This document shows, in pieces, positions 33,859 through 64,000 of a DNA stretch of 64,000 nt. Under the pieces are notes generated by a model. It saw only the letters and a list, made by a program, of their open reading frames with translations, did no database searches and had not been told where the DNA came from. This DNA comes from an uncultured Owenweeksia sp. (GTDB taxonomy: Bacteria > Bacteroidota > Bacteroidia > Flavobacteriales > Schleiferiaceae): contig CAZAJG010000006.1 in assembly GCA_964485405.1 (NCBI GenBank), forward strand, positions 41,466-105,465, read 5' to 3'. The translations under genes were made by a program, and so were the position numbers. Every line of letters starts with the position of its first letter. The first letter of the stretch is position 1.

Positions 33859-33901
33859 CGTTGTTGATTTTGTGCTACAATATTGTGGTTAAGTAAATTG
33901 A

Positions 33902-48586: not shown

Positions 48587-49360
48587 ATGTCTATTAACCC
48601 AGTAAAAGTGCTCATTGTAGATGATGAAAGTCGTTCTCGAGAAAATCTCAAACAGCTCATTGAAGGATTTAGCGAGGGAATTCAAGTGTGTGGCGAAGCC
48701 GGTTCTGCTCAATCTGCTTTTAAGCAAATCAATACACTAAACCCGGATGCTCTTTTTCTAGACATTAATATGCCGGATGTAGATGGGATGAGTTTTGCCA
48801 AAATCCTTAGAGAAAAAGGCCTTACTCTCCCTGTAGTTTTTGTTACCGCCTACGATCAATATGCTATCCAAGCTTTTAGAGCAAGTGCTTTAGATTATTT
48901 ATTAAAACCCATCAACTTAAAAGAGTTAGCTCGTGTATCGAATAAGCTAGTAGATTCTTTTAAAAACAAGAGTACACATCCCAATTCTGAACTCTCTTTT
49001 CTATTAGAAAACCTCGAATCTCGTAACACGCCTAAAAAAGTAAAGCTCCCCTGGCAAGGCGGTTTTAAAGTGGTAAATACTGAGGAGATTGTAAGTGTTC
49101 AATCGGATAACTGTTATTCTGAAATATTTCTTGATGATAAAAAACTTACGGCTACTATTACCATTGGTGAGTTGGAACAAATGCTTTCTAACTTCTCCTT
49201 TTTTAGGGTACACAACCGGTTTTTAATAAACCTAAACTATGTGGATAGCTTTAGCAATACTGGGGGAGAACATGTAACTATGACAAATGGCTCTTCTTTT
49301 CCCGTTGCCAGGCGAAGAGTAAAAGAGTTTAAGGAGGCTTTTTCTTCAATTTCCAGTTAA
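48587..49360 (+). CDS. LytTR-family response regulator
   Basis: 257-aa ORF. Receiver (VLIVDDE..., DALFLDINMPD) plus LytTR C-terminal domain (FFRVHNRFLINLNYV). Confidence 0.88.
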   Translation: MSINPVKVLIVDDESRSRENLKQLIEGFSEGIQVCGEAGSAQSAFKQINTLNPDALFLDINMPDVDGMSFAKILREKGLTLPVVFVTAYDQYAIQAFRASALDYLLKPINLKELARVSNKLVDSFKNKSTHPNSELSFLLENLESRNTPKKVKLPWQGGFKVVNTEEIVSVQSDNCYSEIFLDDKKLTATITIGELEQMLSNFSFFRVHNRFLINLNYVDSFSNTGGEHVTMTNGSSFPVARRRVKEFKEAFSSISS

Positions 49361-49366
49361 ATCTTC

Positions 49367-52312
49367 ATGTCTGGACAGCTCTTTTTCCGTTTCTTTTTTT
49401 TGCTTCTTCTGGTACCATCTTATTACAATGGTCAGCCCAAAATAGATCGGGTAAACTATAATTTTTACAATCAGAAAGGATTACGAGGTGATGAGTTTTT
49501 TGGAATTGCTCAAGACTTTAATGGCGTATTATGGGTGGGTAGTACTAAAGGCATCTATCGCTTTGATGGACAAAACAGTCGCTTATATAGCCGTGCAGAA
49601 GGCATTATATCTCGAGTAGTAACTCGAATTTTTCTGTTAAAGGATAGTTCGCTGATCGCTCTTGGCGAAAAGCCATACGCCTTGTACCGGATTAAGAACG
49701 ATAAGCTGCATGTTTTACATCCAGAGCTTGAACATAGACTTAACGGAAATTATGTTTGCTTAAACCGTGATAAAACAGGAATCTATGCGTATTCCTCCAA
49801 TGGATCCAAAATTTTACGTATTGATAAAGATTCAATTCACACCGTTCAAGACTCTATCCGAAGGATATCCTCCTTGTTTCATTCACCCAGCGGTAAGCTG
49901 ATTGTTTGTACCGTGAAGAAAAATAAGGGAGACAAATTAAACCCAAAAAGTGACACCAGTGTAACCCGAGTACTTGAATACCCAACTCGGATAAAGTATA
50001 TAGTTGGTAATAATGGCAATAACTACGCCTTAAGTCAAGAGTATTTAATAGAAGAAAAAGCTTATTCTCAAGTTGATACTTTAGCTCGTTTTACACCAGA
50101 AGATAATATTCTAAAACCGCATTTTCTTGTGCAAGATGACGCGGGAGGGTTTTGGTTTTCTGGCGAAACATCTGGATTACACTATTTTGATCCAAACACA
50201 AAAAAAGTATCCCAACTAGACGCATATTTTGGTTTAAGTGGGGTACAGATTACCTCTCTGTTTAAAGATAATGACGACAACATTTGGCTATCAACCATGG
50301 GTAGGGGCCTTCAATGTATTAGGCGCAGTATTTTTAAAAACTACACTAAATCTGAAGGGCTTCCCAACAACTACATTACACAACTCCAACAAACGAAAAA
50401 CGGGGTAGTTTGGGTAGGAACGTATTCCGGTCTTAGTCTTTTGAAAAAATCCCCTTTCTCTTCAGGCTATCAGATAAAAACATACCCTCAGCTTGGCTTT
50501 ATCCAGAGACTTTCCAAAGATTGGTCTGAACGAATATTTATAGCTAATGAAAGAGGGTTCCCATCAGAACCTCTCAATGCACCAAAAGGAGCGTATTTCA
50601 TTCCAGAAATCGGTCTTTCAGTTGATCAACTGTCTGATAATCAATATGTTTATTCGTCTTGGAGAGGCTTAAGATATTTTAAAAATTATACAGACATCCA
50701 ACAGTGGCATGAGAAAATCACTCTGCAGGTACTAGCTGAAGAGCCGATCAAAAAACTGATTCAGGTAAATGCTCAAGAGTTGGTTCTCACTGAAAAAGGG
50801 CTTTATAAAAGAGAGGTAAACGATTTATGCGCTATCCATATCCCATTGCTCCAAGAAGATCAGCAAAATAATACGCTGGCCTTTTATGATATAGTTGAAG
50901 GTACGAATCAGGAAATATGGATTGGAAGCTCAGAAGGTTTGCTTCATAAAAAAGGGGAAAACTGGACACTGTACAATGCTGAAGATGGCTTGCATGATGA
51001 AGTTTGTAAAACCTTAGAATATGAACCCGGTGAGAATAGATTATGGATAGGTGCCAGCAATGGCTTAATCTCTTTTTGGAAAGGGAATTTTAATGCTTAC
51101 ACCAAAAGTGATGGGCTTCTTTCTAACGAGGTTAATGCGATTCTTAACGACTCTATAAACGACTGCATATGGGTGGCCACAGGAAACGGCCTGAGTCAAC
51201 TTCAAAAATCCCGAGTGGACCATATCCCAGATAGCAAAAAAAAAGTAGCCATTTATCAAGCGGAGATCATGAATGATACTTCTATTGCTTACCCACATGA
51301 TATGCACTTAGAGGCTTTTCAAGACCATTTAACTATTTACTTTTCCGCCCCATACCTCTTCTTTCCTGAAGAGGCCGAATATCAATTTAAGCTCGAAGGC
51401 GTTCACAATAAATGGCAAAAGGCCAATCAAAATAGCCCTAGAGCAGAATTTATGTCCTTATCGCCAGGTGATTATACTTTTAAAGCTCGAAGCAGAAAGT
51501 TGGGTTCTGAATGGGGTGAAGTCTCCAATCTGCGCTTCATCATAGCCACTCCTTTTTGGAAGAGAACTTCCTTTCGGGTAGCAGTGATTATCCTCTTTGT
51601 TTTTATCACCATTTCTATTGCACAGCTCCGTATAAAAAGCATTAAAAAGAAAGAGCGAAACAAACGCCAAATGCTGACCACAATGAATGACTTGGAACTA
51701 CAAGCCTTTCATTATAGCATGAATCCCCACTTCTTGTTTAACTCTTTAAATTCTATACAGCAGTTCATCACCAAGTATAGAGATGCTGTAGCGGTTAACT
51801 TTATATCAGAATTCTCTTTGTTAGTTCGTAATAACTTGGAAGCGCTTCGCTCGGGTTGGATTAGCCTGGATAACGAGATAGAGCAGCTCGAACGATACTT
51901 GAGTCTAGAATCGCATAGACTAAATCATGCTCTTTCCTATAAAATTGAAGTAGATCCCTCCATTCCTCTTTCTCAAGTGGAAGTCCCTCCCCTTTTTATT
52001 CAACCTTTTATTGAAAATTCCATTTGGCATGGTATTGCTCCAAAAGAGAATAAAGAAGGAAGCTTTATACGCCTACAAATTGAAGCTGAGAATGAGGAAT
52101 GTTTGCGGATTACCATACAAGATAACGGAGTAGGCTTAAACGCTCAAAAAAATAACAAAAAGCCAGGGCATGTGTCGAGAGGTATTGAGCTGATTCGAAA
52201 ACGATTGGAATTGCTCTCAGAGAAAAATCAATTTGAAATATTGGAAACCAAAGATCGTGAAGGAAATCCAACCGGTACTTTGGTTAGCATCATATTTCAT
52301 ATAGTAGACTAG
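49367..52312 (+). CDS. sensor histidine kinase with periplasmic two-component-regulator propeller + Y_Y_Y domain and LytS/YehU-type kinase core
   Basis: 981-aa ORF. Repeated propeller blades (VLWVGSTKGIYRFD, NIWLSTMGRGL, VVWVGTYSGLSLL, RLWIGASNGLISF, CIWVATGNGLSQL). Y_Y_Y-like YQFKLEGVHNKW...PGDYTFKARS. A TM helix, then FHYSMNPHFLFNSLNSI (His_kinase PF06580 type) and DNGVGL. Confidence 0.85.
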   Translation: MSGQLFFRFFFLLLLVPSYYNGQPKIDRVNYNFYNQKGLRGDEFFGIAQDFNGVLWVGSTKGIYRFDGQNSRLYSRAEGIISRVVTRIFLLKDSSLIALGEKPYALYRIKNDKLHVLHPELEHRLNGNYVCLNRDKTGIYAYSSNGSKILRIDKDSIHTVQDSIRRISSLFHSPSGKLIVCTVKKNKGDKLNPKSDTSVTRVLEYPTRIKYIVGNNGNNYALSQEYLIEEKAYSQVDTLARFTPEDNILKPHFLVQDDAGGFWFSGETSGLHYFDPNTKKVSQLDAYFGLSGVQITSLFKDNDDNIWLSTMGRGLQCIRRSIFKNYTKSEGLPNNYITQLQQTKNGVVWVGTYSGLSLLKKSPFSSGYQIKTYPQLGFIQRLSKDWSERIFIANERGFPSEPLNAPKGAYFIPEIGLSVDQLSDNQYVYSSWRGLRYFKNYTDIQQWHEKITLQVLAEEPIKKLIQVNAQELVLTEKGLYKREVNDLCAIHIPLLQEDQQNNTLAFYDIVEGTNQEIWIGSSEGLLHKKGENWTLYNAEDGLHDEVCKTLEYEPGENRLWIGASNGLISFWKGNFNAYTKSDGLLSNEVNAILNDSINDCIWVATGNGLSQLQKSRVDHIPDSKKKVAIYQAEIMNDTSIAYPHDMHLEAFQDHLTIYFSAPYLFFPEEAEYQFKLEGVHNKWQKANQNSPRAEFMSLSPGDYTFKARSRKLGSEWGEVSNLRFIIATPFWKRTSFRVAVIILFVFITISIAQLRIKSIKKKERNKRQMLTTMNDLELQAFHYSMNPHFLFNSLNSIQQFITKYRDAVAVNFISEFSLLVRNNLEALRSGWISLDNEIEQLERYLSLESHRLNHALSYKIEVDPSIPLSQVEVPPLFIQPFIENSIWHGIAPKENKEGSFIRLQIEAENEECLRITIQDNGVGLNAQKNNKKPGHVSRGIELIRKRLELLSEKNQFEILETKDREGNPTGTLVSIIFHIVD

Positions 52313-52316
52313 AGTT

Positions 52317-53894
52317 CTATCTGAATAGGGTTAAACAATCGCTAGCATGCTTTTCATTTCCTCTCTCATCTCTATATAAGATTGTCCAGAAATACACCCC
52401 TTCGGTTACATTTTCTGCTTTCCAGTTTATTTTTGGATCTGTTGTTTCGTACACTTTAATTCCCCATCTATTAAAAATTGTGGTGTGCATAGAAATGATG
52501 CCTTTACTTACTGTTGGAGCAAATAAATCATTCACCTGATCATTGTTTGGTGTAAAAACATTGGGCATTTGTAATACAATCTTACAGTCTCCTTGCTTTA
52601 CTAGAATCGAATCCGTAAACCAACAGTTTTCTGTAATTACCTCTACCCAATATATTCCAGGTTCTGTAAGCTTGAAGGTTGAATCGGTGGAATTATCTTG
52701 CCATATATATTCAGCATTTCTAGCTGCTGCATCAAGGAGTATACTTTCTCCGCGACAGATTGTAGTATCCTCTCCAAGATCTTTAAATCTAGAACGAACT
52801 GTACTTACTTGAATGGAGTCCGCAAATACACAACCGCCCACAGTTACCTCTACCCAATATACCCCTTCTCCTTGAGCCATAAAAGTAGGATTCTTTGAAT
52901 CGTCTTGCCATAAATAAGTGGCATTGGATGTTGTTGCATCAAAAAATACGCTTTCTCCTTCACATAAAATGGTATCATTTCCTAATCCTGGGAAATCCGA
53001 ATCGACAATAGTAACTGTAACGGAAGCGGTATCATTCTGTGATCCATAACAAAAATAGGTAGTGGTGCTATCCGGTTTTACTCTAATTATGGAATCTGTG
53101 GAGATAACCATATTTGGCATAACACTATCTACCCAAGTATATGAAGTACTATTAAAAGCCACTAGGCTAATCGAGTCATTTGAGCAAAGGGTGGTGTCGC
53201 CACTCAACCAAATATTAGGGGAAAGTGTAACGCTTACATCATCAATAAAATATGAGGCTACAGAACCTGGTGTGCCAAAGTCGTGAACCAGGAAATTATT
53301 ATAATCCTTAAAGTTACCGATGGAGATATATTGCTCACCTCCTTTTGCCAAGTATTCTCCTGAAATCGGAACCCATTGTGCTGTATCTAAAAGCATATTT
53401 CCTGAAGGATTACTAATTTGAGGTAAAACAGGAGGGTTAATCGGAAAAGCCTTGCGATGAGCCCAAGCCGTATCAGAAATATAAGCACCTATAGCATCAA
53501 TACCATACCTATTATGACTGCGAGATACGTAAAAAACAACATCGTACATCCTATTTTTTACTAAAGGACTTGAAAATTTAACCTGTATATGTTCGCAATA
53601 ATTATCTAAAGCAATTGCTGGATAATAACATATAACATGCGCATAAGCATTACCTGTTCTGGCAGGCTGATACCCCCATTGGTTATTCGGGACACCAGCG
53701 GATGCTGAATTGCATTGATGACAATAATCCGTTGTACCCTTGGTGGGGGAGTACCAAGACAAACAACTATCTATTTGTCCTGTATTGCTGGGACAAGAAG
53801 TATAATTTTCAAAACTCGGATTGGGTATCAAGTTTTGCCCTTTTAACTGATAAAGGGTTAAAACACCTAATACGACTGCTATTAGATTCTTCAT
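52317..53894 (-). CDS. T9SS type B (gliding motility-associated, CHU_C) C-terminal-domain cargo protein
   Basis: 525-aa ORF with a signal peptide and N-terminal NLIPNPSFE... jelly-roll-like domain. Two Ig-like repeats (LG.DT.iC.GES...DA....A.Y.WQD.S....F....GiYWVEV). C-terminal NVFTPNNDQVNDLF...IFNRWGIKVYE...GVYFW signature. Confidence 0.8.
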   Translation of the reverse strand: MKNLIAVVLGVLTLYQLKGQNLIPNPSFENYTSCPSNTGQIDSCLSWYSPTKGTTDYCHQCNSASAGVPNNQWGYQPARTGNAYAHVICYYPAIALDNYCEHIQVKFSSPLVKNRMYDVVFYVSRSHNRYGIDAIGAYISDTAWAHRKAFPINPPVLPQISNPSGNMLLDTAQWVPISGEYLAKGGEQYISIGNFKDYNNFLVHDFGTPGSVASYFIDDVSVTLSPNIWLSGDTTLCSNDSISLVAFNSTSYTWVDSVMPNMVISTDSIIRVKPDSTTTYFCYGSQNDTASVTVTIVDSDFPGLGNDTILCEGESVFFDATTSNATYLWQDDSKNPTFMAQGEGVYWVEVTVGGCVFADSIQVSTVRSRFKDLGEDTTICRGESILLDAAARNAEYIWQDNSTDSTFKLTEPGIYWVEVITENCWFTDSILVKQGDCKIVLQMPNVFTPNNDQVNDLFAPTVSKGIISMHTTIFNRWGIKVYETTDPKINWKAENVTEGVYFWTILYRDERGNEKHASDCLTLFR

Positions 53895-54054: not shown

Positions 54055-55206
54055 CTATTCGTGTTTTATGAACTTAGTGGTGCTTACTTTATCCCCTTGT
54101 ATTAGTCTTAAAAAGTAAACCCCAGAATTTAGATGTTGAATATTTACCGTTTTAGAAACACCATTTATGGGTTGCTTTAAAAGTAGCTTACCACTCATAT
54201 CTAAAACTTCCAATTGAAGATGAACCTCTTCTTCTAGCTGAACTTTGATAAAATCGCTGGCTGGATTGGGGAAAAGATCAAAGGCGATGGCTTGCTCTTC
54301 CTCTAGGCTAATACCTGTGTTTGAAGAGTAGTTATATAAAAAGCGGTAGTTATTGACCCATTCTTGAAGGGATGGGTCCCAAGATTGACGTGTTTTCTCA
54401 CTCAACAAACCTGCACTACTATTTAAATACAAAACTTTATCAAAGTTGCTCCAGTTTGTGGAATCAGGATGTCTAGACTTGGTTTCTTTCAAAATGAGAT
54501 ATCCATTTTGATCGTAGAGCCAATCGTCTCTTAAAGTGGGGATTTGCCAAATACCATTCTCATTACTCTGATAGAGAATACCTTCAATTTGATTGGACGA
54601 ATTATAGGTATAATCGCCTCTATCTGGTCCCTGCCACATGGCGTCAACACTATTCCACCTCCAAGAGAAAGACTGATGGATACTTCCATTGGTATTTGGA
54701 ACAAGACTATCTCGAATTTGATTTTGCCAGGCTCCCGCTCCCGTGTTCCATGCTTGAGTTATACGACCTGTTTTAAAGCCATTAGTATCGTAAGTATAAA
54801 TGTTTTTGCTCCTGTTCTCCCAAGAATTATTAATCCAATCCATTCTTAGTTCTTCCAGAGTATTCCCATCACCATCTACCGTATATACCAATTGACTCCC
54901 GTTTATCCAGTTATTACTAGCCGCATCCCATCGTTCATCCAAATGATTCAATAACAACCCGTTAGAATCATTGATGTACAAAGACCTGCGATTAAGCTCC
55001 CAGTTGTTTTGCGAAGCATCCCAAAAACGGGTTGTATCTCTAACTAAATAATCTTGATTATCGTAGGTAAATTGTGTTTCCCATGTATCGGATTCCGACC
55101 AAGCTGTTCCATCCCATATTTGAAAAATGTAGGACTCTGCTTGTTGGGCCAATAACAGCCCGGAACATAAAAAGATGGATAGGAATAGAATAGTTCTTTT
55201 CTTCAT
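54055..55206 (-). CDS. T9SS type A CTD protein built from about nine 31-aa Trp/YD-like repeats
   Basis: 383-aa ORF with a signal peptide. The repeat pattern is W(D/N).....W.......Y.YD.NG......., for example WDASQNNWELNRRSLYINDSNGLLL and WINNSWENRSKNIYTYDTNGFKT. C-terminal FDLFPNPASDFIKVQL...GVYFLRLIQGDKVSTTKFIKHE is a Por secretion tail. Confidence 0.8.
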   Translation of the reverse strand: MKKRTILFLSIFLCSGLLLAQQAESYIFQIWDGTAWSESDTWETQFTYDNQDYLVRDTTRFWDASQNNWELNRRSLYINDSNGLLLNHLDERWDAASNNWINGSQLVYTVDGDGNTLEELRMDWINNSWENRSKNIYTYDTNGFKTGRITQAWNTGAGAWQNQIRDSLVPNTNGSIHQSFSWRWNSVDAMWQGPDRGDYTYNSSNQIEGILYQSNENGIWQIPTLRDDWLYDQNGYLILKETKSRHPDSTNWSNFDKVLYLNSSAGLLSEKTRQSWDPSLQEWVNNYRFLYNYSSNTGISLEEEQAIAFDLFPNPASDFIKVQLEEEVHLQLEVLDMSGKLLLKQPINGVSKTVNIQHLNSGVYFLRLIQGDKVSTTKFIKHE

Positions 55207-55335
55207 TGTGTTTGTTTTTAGTTAGTTATTCTTCTATTTCTGTCCTATTTCCTTACTCCTGTTTCAATAACTCTCTGTTAAAAAAGAGTGCTTTTTAATT
55301 TTGACTTTTTGTTTTTTGATCCGTTGCCTTAGCCC

Positions 55336-55470
55336 AAAAAGAATATGGTGGAACTCCTATTCAGAATCAATATCAATTCCAACCGTATCTAATCCAATGG
55401 TGTTAGTGTTTTATAAATCTTGCAGCACTTGTTTTATCCGTTGCTGATGCCTTGGTAGGTTTGGTGTCAT
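55336..55470 (-). pseudogene. remnant of the 3' end (last ~20 codons plus 3' flank) of a paralogue of the 383-aa T9SS gene
   Basis: 55336-55440 aligns with 54001-54105. Shared blocks are AAAAAGAATATGG, AACCGTATCTA, GTGTTTTAT and TTTATCC, with one 12-nt indel. The remnant translates to ...TDKTSAARFIKH*, against ...GDKVSTTKFIKHE* in the intact gene. An in-frame TGA lies 22 codons upstream. Confidence 0.45.
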
Positions 55471-55651
55471 GAAGTCAAGGATTAAAGCATTTACCAATCA
55501 TTAATTCTACCGCAACAAAGTTCTCCGTAGTTTTTCCAAACTTTGTATGAATTTTTTATTTCGATTTAATCATCTAAGAAATGAGCTATAAAGTGTTTAT
55601 CCTACTTTTACTTTCATTAACAAAATGATCTATCACCTTAGTAATTACATA

Positions 55652-58600
55652 CTAAGGAGTTTTAATGACCTTTTTCTTCGCGTGCCCGTGCCTTTTACCA
55701 CTTCTTTCTGTTAATCCAAGTATTTTCCGAACTTTATTCTCTGTTTGGACAGAAGTATCTTTATTCGAATTTGTAAATATGTCAAAAACATGACCCAAAA
55801 GCTCATGTGCCGTTGTAGCGTTGATTTCTGTTGCCAACGGATTGCCATTATTGTCCTCGTTTGTTTTATTTCCCTGAGTAGAAGGATCAACGAGCACCAA
55901 TCCATTTTCTAAATTCTTCCCGGTTGATAAACTTTGGAAAGCAAATGTCCCTCCACCTCCAGCGATTGTACCTTCAAACTCTTTTATTATTGGAACCTCC
56001 GTTTTTACCTTAGGGTTAAGTGGATCTATCTTCCTTGTAACCGTTCCATCTTTGGGGTTAATCTTATCGACATAGTTATCTACCACTTCAATAGTGCTTC
56101 CCACTTGGTTTTTCACAGATCCAACTGTTCCAAGCTTAAACAAGATAGTATAAGAATCATTGCTTGCAACTTCATTTAACCTGTTAGCCAAATCCTTTTG
56201 ATCATTCGAAAATGTCTCCATCGCTTTTTTTAGTTTTCTTCTGTTTACCTTGATTCCTTTTTTGGTTACCTTAAAGCCTGACTTCTTTCCAAAAACAGAA
56301 CCAACAAAAGCGTTAAGATGTTTAACTTCCTCTTTCCCAGCTGGTATAACTTTGCGCCCATCAGGGTCTAAAAAAGTGATTGGAGAGTTTGCGGCAAAAT
56401 TATAAGGAGACAAATGAGGGTATTTGGACATAAGAGGATCCAAACTCATCCACCTCCCAATCCTCGAATCATAAATCCTTGCTCCAAAATCCAAAGAATT
56501 TCCGGCACCTTTCACCTCATCATCCTTCTCCATCCCATTAAACCCATACCGATAATCCTCCCCACTAGCAAAGCGCCCGGGCATTTGCATTCCAAAAGGA
56601 TAATAATCCTGATACGCCACCACATCTGCCTCTCTTAAGATTCCAGGGCTTTGCTTGGTGATTTCAGCATTGTCTACCGTAAAATGCCAAGGCTGCGTTC
56701 TGTTGGTGCTGGTTACTAAAACGTAGAGCCAAATATTTCGAGTTCCACTGACTCCAGGCACGGTAAAGCTTACACCTTTAGTGCCTTGCCCACCTGTATA
56801 GTTACTTCCAATATTCGTAGAGCCTACGGTGCGGTCTTGTACCAAAAGCCTAACAGAAGGTGGATAAGGATAAGCTCCTAACCCGGTGTAAGTGCCTAAA
56901 TCTACACGAAACGTATAGGTTTGTCCGGCTTCCAGATCTATTTTTAAAATGGGAGCTCCATAGGATGTACTGGTTTCCACCAGCATTTTTTGACCTATAT
57001 TGGTAAGGATAGTGGGAGGATTACCTCCTGTATTATTGGCTCCATGCGGATACCATCCCATGAGGGTTCCATCATCAAAGTCATGATTTACCGTAAAACC
57101 GCCATCGCTCTCAAAAAGTGGGGCATCACTTACCGTGGCTAAAACATTGCCTAAATGGTTTTTCAGCTCATAACTTTTGTGGGAGAGTTTTCTCGTATAA
57201 TCTGTTGCTACTCCATCTACCGTTACGGCAGAGGTATAAGGGTTGAGCACTCCTAACCTGTCTGAGCCAAACACATTGAGTTCGGCTAAAGAAGCACTAC
57301 TTTGCCCGGCTTCCTGAGTGTAAGTGGCCATGGCGTTACCGCTGGCATCTCGTACATAAAAGGTCTTTTTAGCACCACCACTTCCGGGAACTTCTTTCTC
57401 TATCCGATTGCCCAGGGCATCGTATTTAAAATCAATTTGATCGCCTCCCGTTTTTTGTACAGATTTCACCTTTCCGGATACTGTCCAGTCAATGTTGTCA
57501 ATATCCTGCCCGTCATCTGAGGTAAGATTCCCTATGGCATCATAAGTGTAGTTCCCTCCAGTGGTGATGTCGTTTCCTGTGGTATTTAATTCTGCTTCCC
57601 CTAAATGTACCAAACGGTTCCGTTTGTAATCTACACTTGGATCAAAATAGCTGTAAGTGAAATTATCAATCTGAGTTCCCGTTTCGCGTTTGCGTGTTAA
57701 ATGGGTGAGGTTCCCATTTTTATCATAGGCATAGGTGGCTCCATATCCTCCATCTGTGGTGTTGGCGGTTAATGCATCGTTAGAAGAGCTTAAATCAGCA
57801 TCGGCATAGGTATTAAAAGAAGTAATTCGATTTAACTGATCATAGCGATAACTGTTTAAGTTGGCCTCAATGGCTTGCTGCGTATTGTCTCGCATTTGAT
57901 TGCTCATAGCCGAGATGTTCCCGTTGTATAAATCGTTTGCCGTAATAGCTGCTGGTATATTACGCACTATGGGTTGATTGGAAAGCGTTCCGATAGCGCT
58001 ATAATCTCCGCTGTAGTAGGATAAAGAATAGGCAAAAGCATCACGTCCTACATAAGGGTTAGTTCCTCCTATACTTTTCCCATCTTGTCCTAAATCAAAA
58101 GATTGATTGGGGTTATTGGTTCCTAAGGTGGAGCTGTTTACGGTTTTTAACCATCCTTGTAAGGTATAAGCAAAATCTTGCCCCTGAATTAGGTGTTCTC
58201 CTAATTCAATTCGGGCTAAAGGCCCGTGTGGGTAATAGTAGTAAGCCGCTTCTCTATCCCATATTTCATCGTTTAAGCTGGTTTCTACATATTGAATCCG
58301 GTTGTCTGCATCATAGGTGTAACGGTGGTAAAAGGCGTTGGTTTTACCGGGTTCGTAGGATACTTTTTTTACGTTTCCATTTAACAGATCGTAATCGTAA
58401 GCTATGGTGATGAAGTTATGGCCGGCAGCACTTAAATCCTCGCTGTAGGAGTAGAGGGTTTTTACATTGCCCAACACATCGTAATCATACAAATACGCAT
58501 GATCTGGCAAAGCGTAGCTGAAATCCCCTAAAGCATCTGCTGCTGGATTGTGTATATCCAAAATGGCGTTACTTAAACTCGGGTAATAAAAAGTGGCCGA

Positions 58601-61600
58601 TACTCGGTTTTGCAAATACTCTTGATCCATATTTACGCTGATGGCCGTATACGCTTGATCGTATAGTGTATGTGTAACTTCCGTTCTACTGTGGAGGTTG
58701 GTGAGCATAAAATCTTCTTCTACCAATTGCCCAAAAGGGGGTGGGGTGGATAGGGAGCATTCCCCGGCTTCTACTACTCTTCCCAATTCATCATACAGAC
58801 TATAGCTGTAGGTAGAAACACTTGCTTGTTTGGCATTTTGCGATAATACAATACGCCCTAAACGATCGTACCAAAATTTAGATTCTCCACCATCGGGTGT
58901 AAACTGCTGGATGATTTGGTTGAGGGTGTTGTAGCGGTAATGGGTTTGAAAATCATGCTCTGGACGGATAAAAGGTCGCTGGCTGTCTTTGCGATGATCT
59001 TCTACATCACTCAGTTTTACTCCACCTTGTATAGCGGCCTCTGCCGGGATTATTTTCACCCCTTCTGGTGGAACCGTTTTTATCAAGTTTCCGGATTGAT
59101 CGTAGTAGTAGAGGGTAAATTGGTATTCATCAATTTCATAACCCAGGGTAAAATTTTCTGTAGTTAATACTTGCTGGCGACAGCTTTCAAGATAGGCTGC
59201 TCGTATTTGGTCTAAAAGATCTTCTACCTCCAATAGGTATTGGGCTAAAGCGGATTGTTCTGCTTCATGTTGAGCTGCTGCAAGGCAATCTGCTAAAGGA
59301 TCGTAATCCGGGGCCATAGAAGCTGGGCCATCAAAATCGTTTCCATATACACAGCTGTTGAAGTAGGGGTTAGCAAAAATAAATTTGAGCGAAGTATATT
59401 CTTGAGATTGGCAATCGGTGTAAATGGTTTGTAATTGAGCAACGGTAGGAGAAGAACCTACTTGCGCTGTAATTTCATTTTCTACATCACTCCAGTTGGG
59501 GCCAAAATCATTGTACAGATTATCTAAATTGTTGCATAGGCAATCTCTTAACTCTTGATCATCAGGAACATCTTGAAGATTTTCATTAAAAAATTCAGTT
59601 AATGCCGCTAAATCTCCAAACTCTCCTATGTTGTCAAAAAGCATATTAGGTGGAAATACGAGTTGCCATCCGTTTAAGGCAGAAGTGAGTCCATCGTAAT
59701 CATCTCTATCGTCATCTTGCGGATTGGGCACACATAGTTCACTGTATTTAACCATATTGTATATGGCCATTTCTCGATAAAAAAGATAAATGCTTCTAAA
59801 AAACTCATACTTATTCATGCTATCAAACATGGGGTTTTCCACTCCACCACCACCATGCAGCTGGTTGTAAAAGTTGATGATATCCGCAGGCAGGTTTGCC
59901 GTATTCCCTTGGGCAATATCGTCCGGATCATTTAACACATACCAAATACTATGTGATACTGGATCAGAGGAGTTTGTGGGTGTAAAAGTGATGAAGTTCA
60001 TTAAGCGGTTCATGATATCACCTCTCATTAAATCTGCTCCATGGGGTTGATGCGATTCATTGGATAAAAGCTCACAACTGGCAACGGTAAGATCGAAAGC
60101 ATCGGAACCATCTACTATAAGTTCATCGGAACCTAAAACATCGTAATTGATGTACCCGCTATTATCCATATCCTGCCCGTATGTATTGAGGTTGATCCCC
60201 ATAGCCAATGGATTGAAAAAATTATGATTGGGGTGGGTAGTGGCATATTCCATTGTATTACCCCGGTTCATCAGGTTGATATAGCCCCAATTCAAATCGT
60301 TAGTGCTCAGACATTCGCAGTAAAGCTCGTAGGTGCAATATTCTGGATGTAGATGCATAATAGCTGCGGACATGCTTTCATCCCAATTGTCTCGTGCCTC
60401 TTGCCAGCTGGTAAAGCTTATGCTTGAATTAACAGCAGTAGCTAAAGCTCCAGGTGTGGCAAAATGAGAAGCCAACCAGTCAAACCAATTCTGATTGGGA
60501 TCGTAGTCTCTCGATCCATCTGGGTTTAAAAGGATGGCTTTGGTATCTGTATCATATTGCAAGCGAGGAGCAATGTTGTCAAAATATTGCCCTCCCGGAC
60601 TTAAAGAGTTAATGATTTGCTTGTACTTAATTCCGCAGAAGTCAATATCCGTAATTTTCTCATCGGCCTCTTCGCATAGGTTTTGGCAATTGGTAATGGC
60701 CATTGTTACTGGATCGTTGGGATCATTGGGATCGTAGGAGGTGTAGGTATTGCCACTGGCATCTAAATATTGCGAAACGCCATTTACTACCATAACGTAA
60801 GCCTGTAAGCAGGAGATGCTACAGTTTGGAGTGCTGCAATCTACATCAGAAGGAAGAACTTGATAATTTGCACATGGAGCCAACTCATTGTCTAAGTAAA
60901 CTGAGGAAAAAGAATAACCAAATCTCAATCCATCAATAGCCGTTTCTAAGGCTGTGAAATTTGGTTTAATAGTACGCTTCAGCATGTATTGGCCCGGTAA
61001 AAGTGTAACTTCTTTGGAGCCGCTTAAAGGTTCGTTGCTGCTGGTATAACTCCCAATTCTTTCCAGCATCAAATCTCCGGTACGTATGTTTATCAGTTTT
61101 ATTTCAATCTCAAAAAGGCCTGAGTTTTCTGGAAATCCCATTCCAATAAGATCGCCCAGTGCAGTTGTACAAACGGGGTTAAATGGCACTTCTCCCAGAC
61201 TGTAGGTAAAAGTATAATTCCCAACTACCGGTGCGGTTACAATAGTAAAATCCTCAAAAACAGCTTGAGATGTTTCGGTTTTGGTTTTAAAAAGATTGGA
61301 AACAATTTCCTCCGGATTTCTGGGTAAAGCATCCATACCGGATGGAGTGTTGCCACTTAAGCAAGTGGCCACCACCCGGTTAGAGCCATCCTTATAGGTA
61401 ATACTTATTTGGCTATTTTCATCAATTTGGTAGTCTTTGCTGTAGTTAATACTCAAGCCTGCCTCGTTTCCAAAAAGCCGATCTAGCTCTTCTTGCTTAG
61501 GACGACCGTAAATAAAGGTTTTGTTTTTCCCTTCTTTCATGGCATAGGTATCCCCTGGAGCACTTTGTTGAATTACCCGGCCTGTACCATTGTTATCGTA

Positions 61601-63085
61601 TAACATTTGGCTATAAGGGTAGCCCTTAGCATCGGGAATAAAATCCCTAAAATCCGATTGTATGGAATTGGACGGGGAATAGTATTGTGTGGCTAAAGCG
61701 GCAGCATCTAGCTCAGCTGGAGTTTCACCTGTTCCGGAGGTTACTTGATCTAAACGGGTATCGCTAAAATAATTTGCAGGAGTAAAGTTGGGGTTAGCCG
61801 CATAGTATTGTAATCCTTGAGAGGTAACTGGTGCCGGCATAAGCTGTATGGAAGGACGACCTGCATAGTCGTATTCACTTTCAGATACAACGGCATTGCC
61901 ATCAGAACTTAACAGGCTTACGCTTTGCTTGTTTCGCCCTAACCCATCAAAAAATTGAAGCTGATCTTTACGAAGACCATTTTCCGCAAAAACAGAGGTG
62001 TATTCCCAGTTTAAATTCTCATTTAAAATCTCTGTTCCATCAATGTAGTGGTAAAAGAAGTTTCCTACCGTGTTGCTTTGCTCCGTTTGTATAGCGCTAA
62101 TGGTTGACGTGGATGGCGTGTAACTCCATGCACTGTATTGATATTCTCCACTCGCATCTTGAGATACTAATCTGTATCTATGGATAAGAGATCCTCTAGA
62201 AAACTCCATCGGTAAAGCATAGTAATTCTCACGGATACGGATGCGATTTGCGTCCTTAAAATTTACCGGGATACTTAAGTTTTTATGGTCACCATTTTTT
62301 ATTCCATCCGAGATAAAGAGCCATTCTATTTCATAATAATCTGCACCCGGAGAAAAAGGATATTCGAGATTAAAGTAACGGTTGGTTACATCGGATGTAA
62401 GCACGGCTCCGCTAGGGTTAGAACTGCTTACATCTACATAGCGTTTTGATGCTATCTCTATTTCGATAAAGGTGTTTTTTGGAGCAACATTGGCGTTGTA
62501 CGTGGTTCCATCAAACTTCTTTACCGTTATGGATGTACCTGTAATTTTAGCCTTTATCACATCATGTATTCCTATTAGGCCTCCTCCCGCATCATAATAA
62601 CTGTAGTTGCGTTCTACGTAATCTATAATTTCACCTCCTTCGGTTACATCATATCTAACTTTTAAAGCTTGATTATTTAAGGTTACTGTATCGCGCGTTT
62701 TAGCTCCAACCGGTCCAATTAACTGGATATATTCTAAACTATATTTTACCTCAACTTCAAAGGATGTTCCTGCCAAATAGAGGTCTGGATCACTCTCATA
62801 ATCTCTATCAAAATAAAGTTTCACTTTTAGCTGATCCTTTTCAGCAGTGGAAAGGTAGTTGTTGCTCAGGTTAAGCTCATCTCGGTTAGACACGTCTAAC
62901 CAATAAGAAAGCCCGCCTGTTGGAACAAATTGATTTACAGATACAGAAGAGGCTATTTTTTCTTCTCCTCCAGCTTGAAGCGATATACAAGCCAGACTCA
63001 ACAAAAAACTAAGACCTATCTGCTTTAAAAGGCGTACACCATTTTTGGTCTGAACTGCCATAGGGTTATTCAAAGTATTTTTCAT
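55652..63085 (-). CDS. 2477-aa Rhs/YD-repeat polymorphic-toxin-type protein with Sec signal, DUF6443-like module, Cys-containing unknown region, YD shell, RHS core and 234-aa C-terminal tip
   Basis: N-terminal hydrophobic signal (LLKQIGLSFLLSLACISLQAG). FFDGLGRNKQSV...SEYDYAGRPSIQLMPAPV resembles DUF6443 (from memory). At least 10 YD repeats, e.g. YYYDQSGNLIKTV, YDYDVLGNVKTLY, YTYDADNRIQYVE, YAYDKNGNLTHLT, YTYDAIGNLTSDD, FKYDALGNRIEKE. Core motif YDSRIGRWMSLDPLMSKYPHLSPYNFAANSPITFLDPDG. Confidence 0.9.
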   Translation of the reverse strand: MKNTLNNPMAVQTKNGVRLLKQIGLSFLLSLACISLQAGGEEKIASSVSVNQFVPTGGLSYWLDVSNRDELNLSNNYLSTAEKDQLKVKLYFDRDYESDPDLYLAGTSFEVEVKYSLEYIQLIGPVGAKTRDTVTLNNQALKVRYDVTEGGEIIDYVERNYSYYDAGGGLIGIHDVIKAKITGTSITVKKFDGTTYNANVAPKNTFIEIEIASKRYVDVSSSNPSGAVLTSDVTNRYFNLEYPFSPGADYYEIEWLFISDGIKNGDHKNLSIPVNFKDANRIRIRENYYALPMEFSRGSLIHRYRLVSQDASGEYQYSAWSYTPSTSTISAIQTEQSNTVGNFFYHYIDGTEILNENLNWEYTSVFAENGLRKDQLQFFDGLGRNKQSVSLLSSDGNAVVSESEYDYAGRPSIQLMPAPVTSQGLQYYAANPNFTPANYFSDTRLDQVTSGTGETPAELDAAALATQYYSPSNSIQSDFRDFIPDAKGYPYSQMLYDNNGTGRVIQQSAPGDTYAMKEGKNKTFIYGRPKQEELDRLFGNEAGLSINYSKDYQIDENSQISITYKDGSNRVVATCLSGNTPSGMDALPRNPEEIVSNLFKTKTETSQAVFEDFTIVTAPVVGNYTFTYSLGEVPFNPVCTTALGDLIGMGFPENSGLFEIEIKLINIRTGDLMLERIGSYTSSNEPLSGSKEVTLLPGQYMLKRTIKPNFTALETAIDGLRFGYSFSSVYLDNELAPCANYQVLPSDVDCSTPNCSISCLQAYVMVVNGVSQYLDASGNTYTSYDPNDPNDPVTMAITNCQNLCEEADEKITDIDFCGIKYKQIINSLSPGGQYFDNIAPRLQYDTDTKAILLNPDGSRDYDPNQNWFDWLASHFATPGALATAVNSSISFTSWQEARDNWDESMSAAIMHLHPEYCTYELYCECLSTNDLNWGYINLMNRGNTMEYATTHPNHNFFNPLAMGINLNTYGQDMDNSGYINYDVLGSDELIVDGSDAFDLTVASCELLSNESHQPHGADLMRGDIMNRLMNFITFTPTNSSDPVSHSIWYVLNDPDDIAQGNTANLPADIINFYNQLHGGGGVENPMFDSMNKYEFFRSIYLFYREMAIYNMVKYSELCVPNPQDDDRDDYDGLTSALNGWQLVFPPNMLFDNIGEFGDLAALTEFFNENLQDVPDDQELRDCLCNNLDNLYNDFGPNWSDVENEITAQVGSSPTVAQLQTIYTDCQSQEYTSLKFIFANPYFNSCVYGNDFDGPASMAPDYDPLADCLAAAQHEAEQSALAQYLLEVEDLLDQIRAAYLESCRQQVLTTENFTLGYEIDEYQFTLYYYDQSGNLIKTVPPEGVKIIPAEAAIQGGVKLSDVEDHRKDSQRPFIRPEHDFQTHYRYNTLNQIIQQFTPDGGESKFWYDRLGRIVLSQNAKQASVSTYSYSLYDELGRVVEAGECSLSTPPPFGQLVEEDFMLTNLHSRTEVTHTLYDQAYTAISVNMDQEYLQNRVSATFYYPSLSNAILDIHNPAADALGDFSYALPDHAYLYDYDVLGNVKTLYSYSEDLSAAGHNFITIAYDYDLLNGNVKKVSYEPGKTNAFYHRYTYDADNRIQYVETSLNDEIWDREAAYYYYPHGPLARIELGEHLIQGQDFAYTLQGWLKTVNSSTLGTNNPNQSFDLGQDGKSIGGTNPYVGRDAFAYSLSYYSGDYSAIGTLSNQPIVRNIPAAITANDLYNGNISAMSNQMRDNTQQAIEANLNSYRYDQLNRITSFNTYADADLSSSNDALTANTTDGGYGATYAYDKNGNLTHLTRKRETGTQIDNFTYSYFDPSVDYKRNRLVHLGEAELNTTGNDITTGGNYTYDAIGNLTSDDGQDIDNIDWTVSGKVKSVQKTGGDQIDFKYDALGNRIEKEVPGSGGAKKTFYVRDASGNAMATYTQEAGQSSASLAELNVFGSDRLGVLNPYTSAVTVDGVATDYTRKLSHKSYELKNHLGNVLATVSDAPLFESDGGFTVNHDFDDGTLMGWYPHGANNTGGNPPTILTNIGQKMLVETSTSYGAPILKIDLEAGQTYTFRVDLGTYTGLGAYPYPPSVRLLVQDRTVGSTNIGSNYTGGQGTKGVSFTVPGVSGTRNIWLYVLVTSTNRTQPWHFTVDNAEITKQSPGILREADVVAYQDYYPFGMQMPGRFASGEDYRYGFNGMEKDDEVKGAGNSLDFGARIYDSRIGRWMSLDPLMSKYPHLSPYNFAANSPITFLDPDGRKVIPAGKEEVKHLNAFVGSVFGKKSGFKVTKKGIKVNRRKLKKAMETFSNDQKDLANRLNEVASNDSYTILFKLGTVGSVKNQVGSTIEVVDNYVDKINPKDGTVTRKIDPLNPKVKTEVPIIKEFEGTIAGGGGTFAFQSLSTGKNLENGLVLVDPSTQGNKTNEDNNGNPLATEINATTAHELLGHVFDIFTNSNKDTSVQTENKVRKILGLTERSGKRHGHAKKKVIKTP
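55655..56356 (-). other. Rhs C-terminal variable (toxin) domain, 234 aa, containing HELLGH at 55790-55807
   Basis: This is the sequence after DPDG. It has no YD repeats, is Lys-rich, and has a GGGG loop. AHELLGHV has HEx3H spacing. No family recognised. Confidence 0.55.
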
Positions 63086-63095
63086 GATGTTTTGG

Positions 63096-64000
63096 TTATT
63101 TTTTGAGGTGCACTATGTTGTTAGATACAGTATGGATTCCTCTATCGGTTTCCTTTTTCACATAAGCTAGTTTTCCTTCTTCGTTGTACCCATAAAAGGT
63201 GGTAAAGTTGTTGGCATCCATTTGAGCGATCAATCTGTAGGTATCTAAATCATACACATAAGTTGTAATGGCTGCATCAGCAGGGTAAAAACGGATATCG
63301 TCTATAACTCCATTGCCATTAAAGCTGATGGACCTACTCGTGGAGGATTTATCTGTTTTAAAGGTGTAGGTAATTAAATCCCAGCCATCTATATTGGAGG
63401 CGTCTTTGGTTACATATTCGTCTGCGACAGAGGTTGTAACCAGAGGGGTTCCCGACTGTTGCCAAAAGCTAAGTCTATACAATTTATCTTTTAGCAGATC
63501 CGTTAAGTTTAAGTTACTGGAAGAGTTTACATTAAGCGATTGGTCACCCGTATGGCTTAGAGAAGAGTTAATACTTGCCCCAGAGGAAAAGTTAATATGT
63601 CCTCTAAGTCCTGGCCAAGCACCGCTAAAACCTTCAAAATTTTGGTATCCTATTTCATCGTAAGCCGCATTGATTGCATTGGCAGTAACCAAGGTTCTAT
63701 CTTCATTAAAAAGCTCACACGAGTAAATTCCCAAAGCATCACGGTTTTCCAATTGATTTCCGAAAGGGTCGTACTTGGTTATTTCACCGGTATTTAACCA
63801 TTGCTTATTCTTATCCACCGAAGCCGTAAAGTTGTAATCTACATAGGCTGTATAGCTTCCATCCTCCTGCATTTTGGTTTCATAAAAACCATCGGTAGCG
63901 ATCTCATCTGTATAAGTTCTGGTACTTATACTTTTTAAACTTTGCACAGGTCTGTACAGGTGCTTATGCTTATACCGTACAGGCTTTTGTGTAGTAACTT
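63096..64000 (-). CDS. C-terminal ~300 codons of a larger YD-repeat-like protein; the N-terminus lies beyond the window
   Basis: The track starts this ORF at GTG 63947, but I checked that the frame stays open to position 64000. YD-like strands (ITKYDPFGNQLENRDALG, YVYDLDTYRLIAQMD, FYGYNEEGKLAYVKKE) flank a ~150-aa inserted module ending IDDIRFYPADAAITTY. The stop lies 10 nt before the Rhs ATG. Confidence 0.75.
   Translation of the reverse strand, partial: VTTQKPVRYKHKHLYRPVQSLKSISTRTYTDEIATDGFYETKMQEDGSYTAYVDYNFTASVDKNKQWLNTGEITKYDPFGNQLENRDALGIYSCELFNEDRTLVTANAINAAYDEIGYQNFEGFSGAWPGLRGHINFSSGASINSSLSHTGDQSLNVNSSSNLNLTDLLKDKLYRLSFWQQSGTPLVTTSVADEYVTKDASNIDGWDLITYTFKTDKSSTSRSISFNGNGVIDDIRFYPADAAITTYVYDLDTYRLIAQMDANNFTTFYGYNEEGKLAYVKKETDRGIHTVSNNIVHLKK

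Follow-up and report, generated by a model that had tools for sequence, protein, structure and literature searches.

An Rhs toxin tip with a HELLGH motif and without an adjacent immunity gene in an uncultured Owenweeksia sp.

What kind of toxin is carried by an Rhs protein whose C-terminal tip matches no curated family, and why does no immunity gene follow it? The question is raised by a locus in a 64,000-nucleotide stretch of DNA from an uncultured Owenweeksia sp. (hereafter the window), in which a first-pass annotation had described an Rhs toxin tip with the hexapeptide HELLGH and nothing in the position expected for an immunity gene. The reading that we favour, at a probability of roughly 60%, is that the tip is a zincin-type toxin of a rare family, most likely antibacterial and acting outside the cytoplasm, and that its immunity gene has most likely been lost from this locus or lies at another place in the genome.

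The Rhs gene and the family of its tip

The gene (55652–63085, reverse strand) was delimited by ORF translation and domain searches. Its product of 2477 amino acids is laid out, from N to C terminus, as a signal-peptide-like segment, DUF6443, a long non-repeat region, a YD-repeat shell, the Rhs core and the toxin tip. Judged by eye from the translation, the approximately 38 N-terminal residues (…LSFLLSLACISLQAGG…; 62972–63085, reverse strand) form a putative hydrophobic signal-peptide or lipoprotein-like segment. DUF6443 occupies residues 372–442 (61760–61972, reverse strand; Pfam PF20041, E 7.5e-13) and, among the proteins examined, was otherwise seen only in L027, a near-identical copy of the same Rhs protein. 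Many YxYDxxGN-type repeats can be recognised by eye in the translation; the repeat models score low (RHS_repeat E 4.8e-4 and 20.9 bits, below its cutoff of 22; YD_repeat_2x E 0.26), and the Rhs effector Tse5 is a weak sequence match in the PDB (E 1.1e-5). The Rhs-associated core lies at residues 2161–2243 (56357–56605, reverse strand; TIGR03696, E 3.3e-14) and ends in …SPITFLDPDG at 56357. Its DPxG end stands directly before a variable C-terminal domain, the arrangement by which Rhs/YD polymorphic toxins are recognised. The locus was therefore rightly described as encoding an Rhs toxin tip, as the core runs to residue 2243 and is followed by 234 residues (2244–2477; 55655–56356, reverse strand) in which no YD or RHS repeats were matched in Pfam or NCBIfam. 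The GC content is lower in the tip (about 0.38) than in the Rhs body (about 0.43). Upstream of the Rhs gene there is an uncharacterised partner gene of about 2000 amino acids, and the context is not that of a T6SS.

Release of the tip by autoproteolysis at the end of the Rhs core is presumed by analogy with Rhs/Tc proteins, in which such cleavage is established. The YD-repeat shell would surround the tip, which would be released by a cut after the …DPDG motif and delivered to a neighbouring cell, where it would cleave a protein or peptide target.

Searches with the tip against Pfam, NCBIfam, PADLOC and the PDB sequences gave only noise, as did the family profile against the PDB sequences, and a word-indexed search of proteins with the tip alone as query returned no relatives. 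HMMER, run exhaustively with the tip over 1.84 billion representatives, yielded nine relatives (E<=1e-3), and a follow-up profile search ten further ones. As to other scaffolds for the tip, all relatives found were Rhs-core-plus-tip proteins, with Rhs-core fragments upstream of the tip in every case. No match to the tip clade was obtained in a profile search of the contigs of 185,579 species genomes, and a metagenome scan gave the relative P0003 again and nothing further. With about 20 sequences among billions, and Flavobacterium and Weeksella as the only named hosts, the tip represents a toxin domain family that is very rare and lies outside all curated models.

Partner genes of the relatives and the gap at this locus

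At the position that partner ORFs take in the relatives, the window has an AT-rich gap of 445 bp (55207–55651; 31% GC). An ORF scan found no immunity-sized ORF in it, in agreement with the first-pass annotation, which had also noted stops in every frame; these number 11–15 per frame on the gene strand. The accompanying statement that ORFs are at most 15 codons long was too low, as the gene strand has ORFs of up to 28 amino acids (TTG, 55411–55497) and stop-free runs of up to 30 codons, and the opposite strand carries a TTG ORF of 48 amino acids. No similarity was found between the gap ORFs and the partner ORFs of the relatives, the gap holds no Rfam family, and the one signal from a promoter and terminator scan was a weak terminator-like hairpin on the opposite strand. 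Faulty assembly does not account for the missing ORF, since a second sample, assembled independently, shows the locus with the same gap, differing by one SNP in 14.8 kb and by none in the tip. We also considered the downstream gene of 383 amino acids as an immunity candidate and rejected it, because it encodes a T9SS cargo protein with a Por_Secre_tail domain, is separated from the toxin gene by 445 bp and does not resemble the partner ORFs.

These partner ORFs are a constant feature of the relatives. All of the distinct homologous tips examined (11/11) are directly followed by a small ORF of 131–175 amino acids (the ORF of L026, at 76 amino acids, is cut by the contig end), which starts between −32 and +42 bp from the toxin stop. 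By eye, most of them have a signal peptide or a lipobox, the called start of L002 being one without, and the homologous tips stand in arrays of tip-plus-lipoprotein cassettes. In Flavobacterium sp. ST-119 a frameshifted tip is accompanied by an intact partner, which matches the partner of L003 at 2e-25. Because they come directly after all 11 tips and one has been kept beside a frameshifted toxin, the partners probably have an immunity-type role, and small exported or lipoprotein ORFs in this place bear the signature of immunity genes. A single immunity family for all of them was considered and dropped: for the partners of the four closest relatives, homology could not be demonstrated either among themselves or with the partner family of the clade that carries HELLDH in its motif, and the comparison of close-clade with HELLDH-clade partners gave an hhalign probability of 0.2% and marginal blastp matches (E 0.003–0.02). 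The tip family is most likely a toxin/immunity family, with the immunity gene missing at this locus and not from the family. A conserved immunity ORF in homologous loci that had simply been deleted here was named in advance as the finding that would speak against a tip in need of no immunity, and this is largely what was observed, with a partner after each of the 11 tips and none here.

Antibacterial, extracytoplasmic action appears most likely for the tip because a small exported or lipoprotein ORF directly follows it in every related locus, and the family would then have the periplasm or envelope as its site of action. In the same arrays, lipoprotein partners are also found beside unrelated tips, which weakens the extracytoplasmic part of the argument. 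We consider it unlikely that the tip is instead directed at a non-bacterial target (a eukaryotic host or grazer, for example) or works extracellularly, so that an immunity protein would not be needed. The empty 445 bp in both samples would fit such a target, and so would the Sec-type N-terminus and the large upstream partner gene outside any T6SS context. Furthermore, all characterised enzymes of the M91 family (NleD and HopH1) and, beyond it, of the M27 family (the clostridial light chains) cleave eukaryotic proteins (PMC6166728, PMC6367388), and Zhang et al. 2012 assigned no immunity protein to the Tox-HopH1 or Tox-MPTase1-5 tips (PMC3482391). However, the small exported ORFs after 11/11 tips are arranged in arrays of cassettes such as typify interbacterial toxin/immunity systems, a partner persists beside a broken toxin in one case, and the 64-kb window shows no sign of eukaryotic host association. 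Between the options left by the first-pass annotation (a non-self target, no need of immunity, or loss of the gene), the 11 partners thus favour loss and make the first two less likely.

Less probable again is that this copy is decaying, the immunity gene having been deleted and the toxin being unused, or in use only thanks to the clonality of the population. Such a history is suggested by the absence here of a partner ORF that is present in all relatives examined, and by the AT-rich, stop-dense region after the toxin stop. The state of the toxin gene itself speaks against it: the 2477-codon ORF is intact, every near-invariant residue of the family is present, and the two samples agree throughout the tip. 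In addition, neither a remnant of a partner gene nor a relocated one was found within the 64-kb window.

The HELLGH motif and its nearest described relatives

HELLGH is encoded at 55790–55807 on the reverse strand and lies in a predicted helix at residues 178–194 of the tip (tip numbering, in which H184 is H2427). H2427 and H2432 are the predicted zinc histidines and E2428 the predicted catalytic glutamate, and 45 residues follow H2432. The octapeptide AHELLGHV, which had been assigned to these coordinates, is present, although the coordinates cover the HELLGH hexapeptide and not eight residues. In an alignment of 19 family sequences, G23, H184, E185, H189, N207 and R218 (tip numbering) are near-invariant, that is, found in at least 90% of the rows; H223 (H2466) is near-invariant in a 10-sequence alignment only. 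As H, E and H of the motif are near-invariant across the 19 sequences, the alignment indicates that HELLGH is no chance match. The description of the domain as an unclassified small metallo-hydrolase is in turn supported, as to a metallo-hydrolase-type domain, by the conserved H/E/H and the lack of any match in the curated libraries. Among the relatives the motif takes the forms HELLGH, HELLDH and HEMLDH, and three members have the canonical HEFTH, HELGH and HEIGH at the same aligned position. For this reason HExxxH is best read as the zincin HExxH with one inserted residue and not as an M49-like signature. The original view of it as a DPP III-type signature distinct from HExxH did not hold up, since both forms occur within one family.

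In the mechanism that we propose, H2427 and H2432 would hold the zinc and E2428 would activate the water, and an otherwise ordinary HExxH helix would have gained the extra residue between the histidines by an insertion specific to the lineage. The alignments offer E2449, D2435 and H2466 as candidates for a third ligand. E2449 belongs to QTEN (E2449–N2450, 55736–55741, reverse strand), which according to the alignments and the AF2 model lies in the helix after the active-site helix and aligns with SEN of NleD. Across the family the Asn of QTEN is near-invariant and the position of the Glu is taken by E, Q or H, with Gln in most of the HELLDH clade. Of the two glutamates that had been suggested as third ligands, that of QTEN is the best candidate, either as ligand or as a residue that shapes the active site; that of LTER is not conserved, whereas the adjacent R2461 and H2466 are. 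The element R2461-S-G-K-R-H2466 (55688–55705, reverse strand) resembles the RxxY motif common to M91 and M27 (PMC6367388), and its R2461 and H2466 would be the counterpart of Arg-x-x-Tyr in the NleD/botulinum-light-chain group. R2461 follows E2449 at a distance of 12 residues, as R203 follows E191 in NleD.

The AF2 model of the tip is confident (pLDDT 92.2, pTM 0.83). A beta-strand (148–156, LVLVDPS) is followed by the helix 178–194 with HELLGH (H184/E185/H189) and by a helix 202–212 with E206/N207, and this modelled order of elements is that of zincins. Foldseek with the tip model found no match at E<=1e-3 in the PDB or BFVD, the top PDB match being the zincin effector GtgA (E 0.07, TM about 0.3, not significant). 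A model of the shorter relative P0003, chosen because it is without the beta-hairpin insertion, gave matches that were no better, with GtgA at rank 2 and the tetanus light chain, ADAM17 and anthrax lethal factor in the top 15 of a list that is not significant. TM-scores of the fold neighbours were 0.27–0.40.

Profile comparisons suggest M91 NleD/HopH1/XopG (PF14891) as the nearest described family, and it is the only Pfam family matched by more than one member of the tip family. The three natural HExxH members match it at E 0.004–0.05, and two more members do so after one residue is deleted from HExxxH; the scores of the relatives (14–18 bits, E 0.004–0.06) are below the gathering cutoff of 25 bits. 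The window tip itself gave no match to PF14891, even with the one-residue deletion. A plasmid tblastn search meant to widen the M91 alignment returned close NleD relatives only. Aligned by hhalign with an NleD alignment, the tip alignment reached E 5.3e-4 (score 32.6, probability 31%, 55 columns), against a score of 20.1 for the best of 60 column shuffles and 14.1 for the reversed alignment. The match weakens to E 0.037–0.039 where the HELLDH clade dominates the alignment. In the hhalign columns HExxH, EN, R and H are paired, the spacing from E to R is equal, and Lys or His stands at the Tyr of RxxY. NleD profiles also reach the M27 light chains, and LLEEARTVG of NleD aligns with the segment SAEELFTFG of the tetanus light chain, presumably the site of the third zinc ligand. 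The corresponding EE[AL]RT[VF]G segment is absent from the tip family, where it falls in an alignment gap. In the botulinum light chain, the third ligand is E261 (BoNT numbering; PMC6367388).

That the tip is not a zincin-type enzyme at all, and that its His/Glu/His serve another role in a new fold, as in a nuclease or some other metal-dependent hydrolase, or bind a structural metal, seems improbable to us. The missing third-ligand segment, canonical in M91 and M27, would be explained by it, as would a confident model with no significant structural match and with much of its structure in a long beta-hairpin sheet atypical of small zincins. On the other hand, H-E-x-x-(x)-H lies in a helix that comes after a beta-strand and before a helix with a conserved E/Q-N, independent members of the family have M91 repeatedly as their top match with hhalign well above the shuffles, and both Foldseek lists have zincin toxins among their first entries. 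What counts against our preferred zincin-type reading is that no fold or sequence match is significant on its own.

M49 enzymes have both hexapeptide and pentapeptide forms of their motif, and HELLGH, which we take to be the exact hexapeptide of mammalian DPP III, fits the HEXXGH pattern, HEXXXH being the form cited for DPP III. A divergent DPP III-type enzyme is nevertheless practically out of the question, as had been concluded at first sight: DPP III has about 700 residues against 234 in the tip, the second motif EEXR(K)AE(D) is absent from the tip translation, M49 was not matched at E<=1 by the tip (Pfam, NCBIfam) or by any relative (Pfam), family members carry HExxH or HELLDH instead, and the sole profile similarity of the family is to M91.

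Comparison with known systems

Metallopeptidase tips on Rhs toxins are known already, and the kind of system is not new: Tox-HopH1 and other such tips, including those of Bacteroidetes, were described by Zhang et al. 2012 (PMC3482391). The missing partner at this locus is likewise an oddity and not evidence of a new principle. The presence of HExxH and HExxxH in one family provides a natural experiment on a zincin tolerating an extra residue between its zinc ligands. An M91-like protease with adjacent lipoprotein partners would, for the first time in this protease lineage, hint at immunity proteins and at a target in the envelope. It is also conceivable, if doubtful, that the tip is a minimal relative of NleD and the botulinum light chain that has lost the third-ligand helix and gained a residue in the zinc motif, and that it is delivered by a Sec-dependent, non-T6SS Rhs system together with the upstream protein of about 2000 amino acids; in most lineages the family would act on bacteria in the envelope and be neutralised by a lipoprotein, and this full-length copy without immunity gene would have been retargeted, for example to a eukaryotic grazer. 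If this were true, the family would form a natural series between interbacterial zincin toxins and the eukaryote-directed M91/M27 effectors.

Among the described systems, M49 shares with the tip four residues between the zinc histidines in place of three, and is unrelated to it in size, fold and second motif. GtgA/NleC (M85) and the clostridial neurotoxin light chains (M27) are the best structural neighbours of both models, at non-significant scores; in M85 an Asp at +7 serves as the third ligand (PMC6166728), and M27 domains have about 430 residues in comparison with the 234 of the tip. HEXXXH variants of zincins in conflict proteins were described in polyvalent proteins of phages and plasmids by Iyer et al. 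2017 (PMC5512222). Like the tip, these MPTases and TldD are zincin-like and have the extra motif residue, with a predicted bend in the helix, and some of the HEXXXH MPTases carry an Asp at the third position behind the motif, like HELLGHVFD of the tip (PMC5512222). Their context is that of polyvalent proteins and that of the tip is Rhs, and the two are likened by description, not by sequence. Closer in setting are Tox-MPTase1-5, which also consist of an RHS shell and a small C-terminal zincin-like toxin, several of them in Bacteroidetes (PMC3482391). These families all have HExxH, in contrast to HExxxH in the window tip, and the Tox-MPTase models in Pfam gave no match at E<=1 with the tip or with the nine relatives of alignment A1. 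M91/Tox-HopH1 seems to come nearest, being like the tip a small zincin toxin domain with the motif order H-E-x-x-H, E-N-K and G…R-x-x-x-x-H and with 12 residues from E to R. The tip differs from it in one more residue between the histidines, a large beta-hairpin insertion and the absence of the EEARTVG segment, and, in contrast to the M91 effectors, for which no immunity is known, the tip family has lipoprotein partner genes adjacent to its toxins.

The Rhs protein and its surroundings

The Rhs gene (55652-63085, minus strand) encodes 2477 residues, in which a signal-peptide-like hydrophobic segment at the N-terminus (by eye from the translation) is followed by DUF6443 (residues 372-442, E 7.5e-13), a body of YD-type repeats and the Rhs-associated core TIGR03696 (residues 2161-2243, E 3.3e-14), which ends in …SPITFLDPDG at 56357. 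The C-terminal tip, 234 residues at 55655-56356 on the same strand, has no repeat or core signal. HELLGH (55790-55807, minus strand), read in the sequence inside AHELLGHV, has 45 residues C-terminal to its second histidine, and no EEXRAE-like motif occurs in the tip; on these points the sequence check agreed with the first-pass annotation. GC content is about 0.43 in the Rhs body, lower in the tip (about 0.38) and lower still in the gap behind it (0.32), and a fall of this kind is common for exchanged Rhs tips.

The gap to the next gene (start 55206) is 445 bp long and has 31% GC. Each frame of the gene strand holds 11-15 stops there; on that strand the longest ORF has 28 aa and the longest run without a stop 30 codons. 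The earlier claim that it holds no immunity-sized ORF stands, while its limit of at most 15 codons was too low. An ENA metagenome scaffold is identical to the window sequence. A second sample from the study behind this scaffold yielded another, 1 base apart in 14.8 kb, with the identical gap, and the Rhs-gap arrangement is therefore real. Within the Rhs protein, about 150 residues between the last repeats and the core (about 1985-2140, about 56660-57130; …FTVNHDFDDGTLMGWYPHG…TYTFRVDLGTYTG…) lack YD repeats and resemble an inserted beta-rich domain; Pfam has no family that covers them, and the only match in the late repeat region, a weak and sub-threshold Phage_tail_3 (residues 1866-1952), lies before this stretch.

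The window comes from the chromosome of a Bacteroidota bacterium. It contains housekeeping genes (including sucA/sucB and asparaginase) and two-component systems, along with several cargo proteins of type IX secretion that have Por_Secre_tail or CHU_C domains, two of these proteins being SprB/HYR giants; no T6SS genes were seen in it. The first two genes 3' of the Rhs gene (54055-55206 and 52317-53894, minus strand) encode such cargo, with C-terminal Por_Secre_tail and CHU_C domains. The cargo protein next to the Rhs gene (383 aa) has YxYDxxG-like repeats and a weak DUF3836 match. Two adjoining giant genes at 28066-39595 (minus strand; 1930 and 1897 aa) encode SprB-repeat/HYR/PKD/LamG surface proteins. 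A T9SS sorting domain is present in the first, and the pair is followed by an OmpA-family gene. A few kb away from the Rhs gene are LytTR-type response regulators with histidine kinases (48587-52312 and 40005-42874), and a LytTR regulator and kinase are also found directly 5' of the orphan cassette of the closest tip relative, P0001 (L014/L015); this proximity may be fortuitous or may point to a regulatory link. Upstream, a co-directional gene for a protein of about 2000 aa (called 2051 aa) stops 10 bp before the Rhs start, occupying 63096-64000 and running past the window end (L001:120-5990 on a longer scaffold). No Pfam family or PDB sequence match was found for this protein, which has faint YD-repeat matches in its last 283 residues only. 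Possibly it serves the Rhs protein as a partner in delivery or in the shell.

Relatives, partner genes and the missing immunity-type gene

The tip had no match in Pfam, NCBIfam, PADLOC or PDB sequences, and a word-indexed search of 5.8 billion proteins returned nothing. An exhaustive HMMER scan of 1.84 billion cluster representatives gave nine proteins at E<=1e-3, the best being P0001 (48% identity, E 2.9e-45), and a profile built from these nine added ten further relatives. Since nearly all members continue from an Rhs core tail (…GRW..DP…DPDG) into the tip, the family is a dedicated Rhs toxin tip. Among 185,579 species representatives, the family occurs in named genomes of Flavobacterium and Weeksella only, and the window's own clade has no representative.

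Neighbourhoods were covered for all relatives that could be assigned to a contig, giving 11 distinct tips. All of them (11/11) are followed by a small ORF, 131-175 aa long and in the same orientation, whose start lies from 32 bp upstream to 42 bp downstream of the toxin stop. These partners measure 163 aa for P0001 (L014), 162 aa for P0002 (L020), 175 aa for P0003 (L018/L025), 141 aa for P0013 (L003), 139 aa for P0015 (L009), 151 aa for P0017 (L008), 131 aa for both P0018 (L012) and P0019 (L002), 143 aa for Flavobacterium sp. ST-119 (L021) and 153 aa for Weeksella sp. FF8 (L022); the exception in length is the lipoprotein that overlaps the toxin stop of P0004 (L026), 76 aa and cut by the contig end. 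Most partners have a signal peptide or lipobox by eye, the called start of the L002 ORF being without one. The relatives' loci are arrays of cassettes, each an Rhs-core fragment with its tip and a small lipoprotein, and in ST-119 the tip is frameshifted and the partner intact. Because of their presence at every tip, the survival of the ST-119 partner beside a broken toxin and the cassette arrays, the partner ORFs bear the classical marks of immunity genes. Six of them (L002, L003, L008, L009, L012, L021) are clearly homologous, with E down to 2e-25; that of L022 is only marginally similar to these six, and the four closest relatives have partners with only marginal similarity to each other and to the six. 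What is conserved is thus the position and type of the partner, with no single demonstrable immunity family. In the Flavobacteriia-type orphan Rhs arrays L003, L009, L012, L020 and L025, most small ORFs after a tip of any type start with a lipoprotein signal (…SC/GC…), and these Bacteroidota Rhs systems may generally rely on lipoproteins for immunity.

Neither the gap nor the rest of the window has a counterpart of the relatives' partners, and the 383-aa cargo protein has no similarity to them. To account for the gap, the first-pass annotation had offered a non-self (eukaryotic or extracellular) target, no need of immunity, or a lost immunity gene. It had named as refuting its view homologous loci with a conserved immunity ORF that is merely missing here, and in substance such loci were found. 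It is most likely that the partner was lost at this locus or is encoded elsewhere in the genome. That the window copy is instead aimed at a non-bacterial target and needs no immunity would agree with the stable lack of the gene in two samples and with the characterised M91 (NleD/HopH1) and M27 (clostridial neurotoxin light chain) enzymes, which all act on eukaryotic proteins; weighed against partners at all 11 related tips, we regard it as unlikely.

The putative zinc motif and the predicted fold

In most family members the motif is H-E-x-x-x-H: the clade of the window tip has HELLGH, a larger clade HELLDH or HEMLDH. Three members have the canonical HExxH (P0002 HEFTH, P0004 HELGH, P0009 HEIGH). 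Because these three keep the pentapeptide and the conserved flanking residues (T-x-x-HE … H-x-x-D) pin a one-residue gap between the glutamate and the second histidine, the hexapeptide is an insertion variant of the ordinary zincin motif. Membership in M49 (dipeptidyl-peptidase III, DPP III) was rejected on size, the missing second motif and the lack of a profile match, and the identity of HELLGH with the DPP III sequence is convergent. The earlier reading was right to deny DPP III homology and wrong to set the motif apart from HExxH.

In tip numbering (add 2243 for the protein), G23, H184, E185, H189, N207 and R218 are nearly invariant in a 19-sequence alignment, as is H223 in a 10-sequence alignment. 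Of the two proposed third ligands, the QTEN glutamate (E2449) lies within a conserved [E/Q/H]-N motif and remains a candidate, while the LTER glutamate is not conserved, the adjacent R2461 being so.

A confident AlphaFold2 model with the family alignment as input (pLDDT 92.2, pTM 0.83) predicts N-terminal helices (tip 8-22, 39-46, 51-64), a beta-sheet including two long hairpins (78-130, a region variable or absent in some relatives), the strand LVLVDPS (148-156), a helix with H184, E185 and H189 (178-194), a seven-residue loop, a helix with E206 and N207 (202-212) and a C-terminal tail with R218 and H223. The predicted order of backing helices, sheet with edge strand, active-site helix and a next ligand-supplying helix is like that of a zincin. 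E206 (E2449) is preferred as the putative third zinc ligand because in a helical hairpin with this geometry it would be expected level with H189. Foldseek gave no significant neighbour in PDB and BFVD; the top PDB match was the zincin effector GtgA (E 0.07, probability 0.47, TM 0.27-0.31), which also ranked second for a model of the shorter relative P0003 (TM 0.40 on target), whose top 15 include tetanus light chain, ADAM17 and anthrax lethal factor. Taken together, the structural signal is coherent though weak.

Proposed action and comparison with known toxins

Enclosure in a shell and cleavage after the core are established for Rhs and Tc proteins. Here the YD shell would enclose the tip and the cut would fall after the DPDG core motif. 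The released tip would act as a zinc endopeptidase: H2427 and H2432 would bind the metal and E2428 would be the catalytic base, E2449 may complete or shape the active site, and R2461/H2466 may stabilise the transition state. The exported partners suggest that the tip attacks competitor bacteria in their periplasm or envelope, a suggestion weakened by lipoprotein partners beside unrelated tips in the same arrays. The first-pass observations were borne out with small corrections, and their interpretation in part. The modest interest of the family lies in a natural HExxH/HExxxH polymorphism inside a single family and in the pairing of an M91-like protease lineage with lipoprotein partners.

Peptidase_M91 (PF14891) was the single recurrent Pfam family across the scanned members. 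The HExxH members P0002, P0004 and P0009 match it at E 0.004-0.05 (14-18 bits, under the 25-bit threshold), and P0001 and P0008 gain a match when one HExxxH residue is removed in silico; the window tip has none even after such a deletion. Profile-profile comparison by hhalign with an M91 alignment seeded from nleD of E. coli O157:H7 Sakai gave E 5.3e-4 (probability 31%, score 32.6, 55 columns), compared with a maximum of 20.1 over 60 column shuffles and 14.1 for the reversed alignment. The similarity is remote but above noise. With a HELLDH-dominated tip alignment the signal drops to E 0.04. P0020, representative of the largest NleD cluster, has HELLY where the Sakai copy has HELLH (second zinc histidine), either a natural inactive variant or an error in its sequence.

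The aligned pairs of tip and NleD are HExx(x)H/HELLH, V-x-x-E-N-K/VLSENK and G-x-x-x-R-x-x-x-x-H/GMPRRTSYPH, with 12 residues from Glu to Arg in both. HExxH and RxxY occur in both M91 and clostridial light chains, as do a third-ligand Glu and another, "active-site refining" Glu (PMC6367388). E2449 and R2461 fit the refining Glu and RxxY, with Lys in place of Tyr (His in the HELLDH clade). The M91/M27 third-ligand segment, in NleD LLEEARTVG (aligned with tetanus toxin SAEELFTFG), is absent from the tip family. Because of this missing segment, the sub-threshold matches and the weaker signal of the HELLDH-rich alignment, the tip is, by sequence criteria, M91-like and not an M91 member. Tox-HopH1 ("HExxH, [DE]N") and Tox-MPTase1-5 have been described on RHS toxins, some from Bacteroidetes, with no immunity protein assigned (Zhang et al. 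2012, PMC3482391), and zincin HEXXXH variants have precedent in conflict proteins (PMC5512222). A metallopeptidase Rhs toxin tip is a known kind, of which this family is a new and very rare one.
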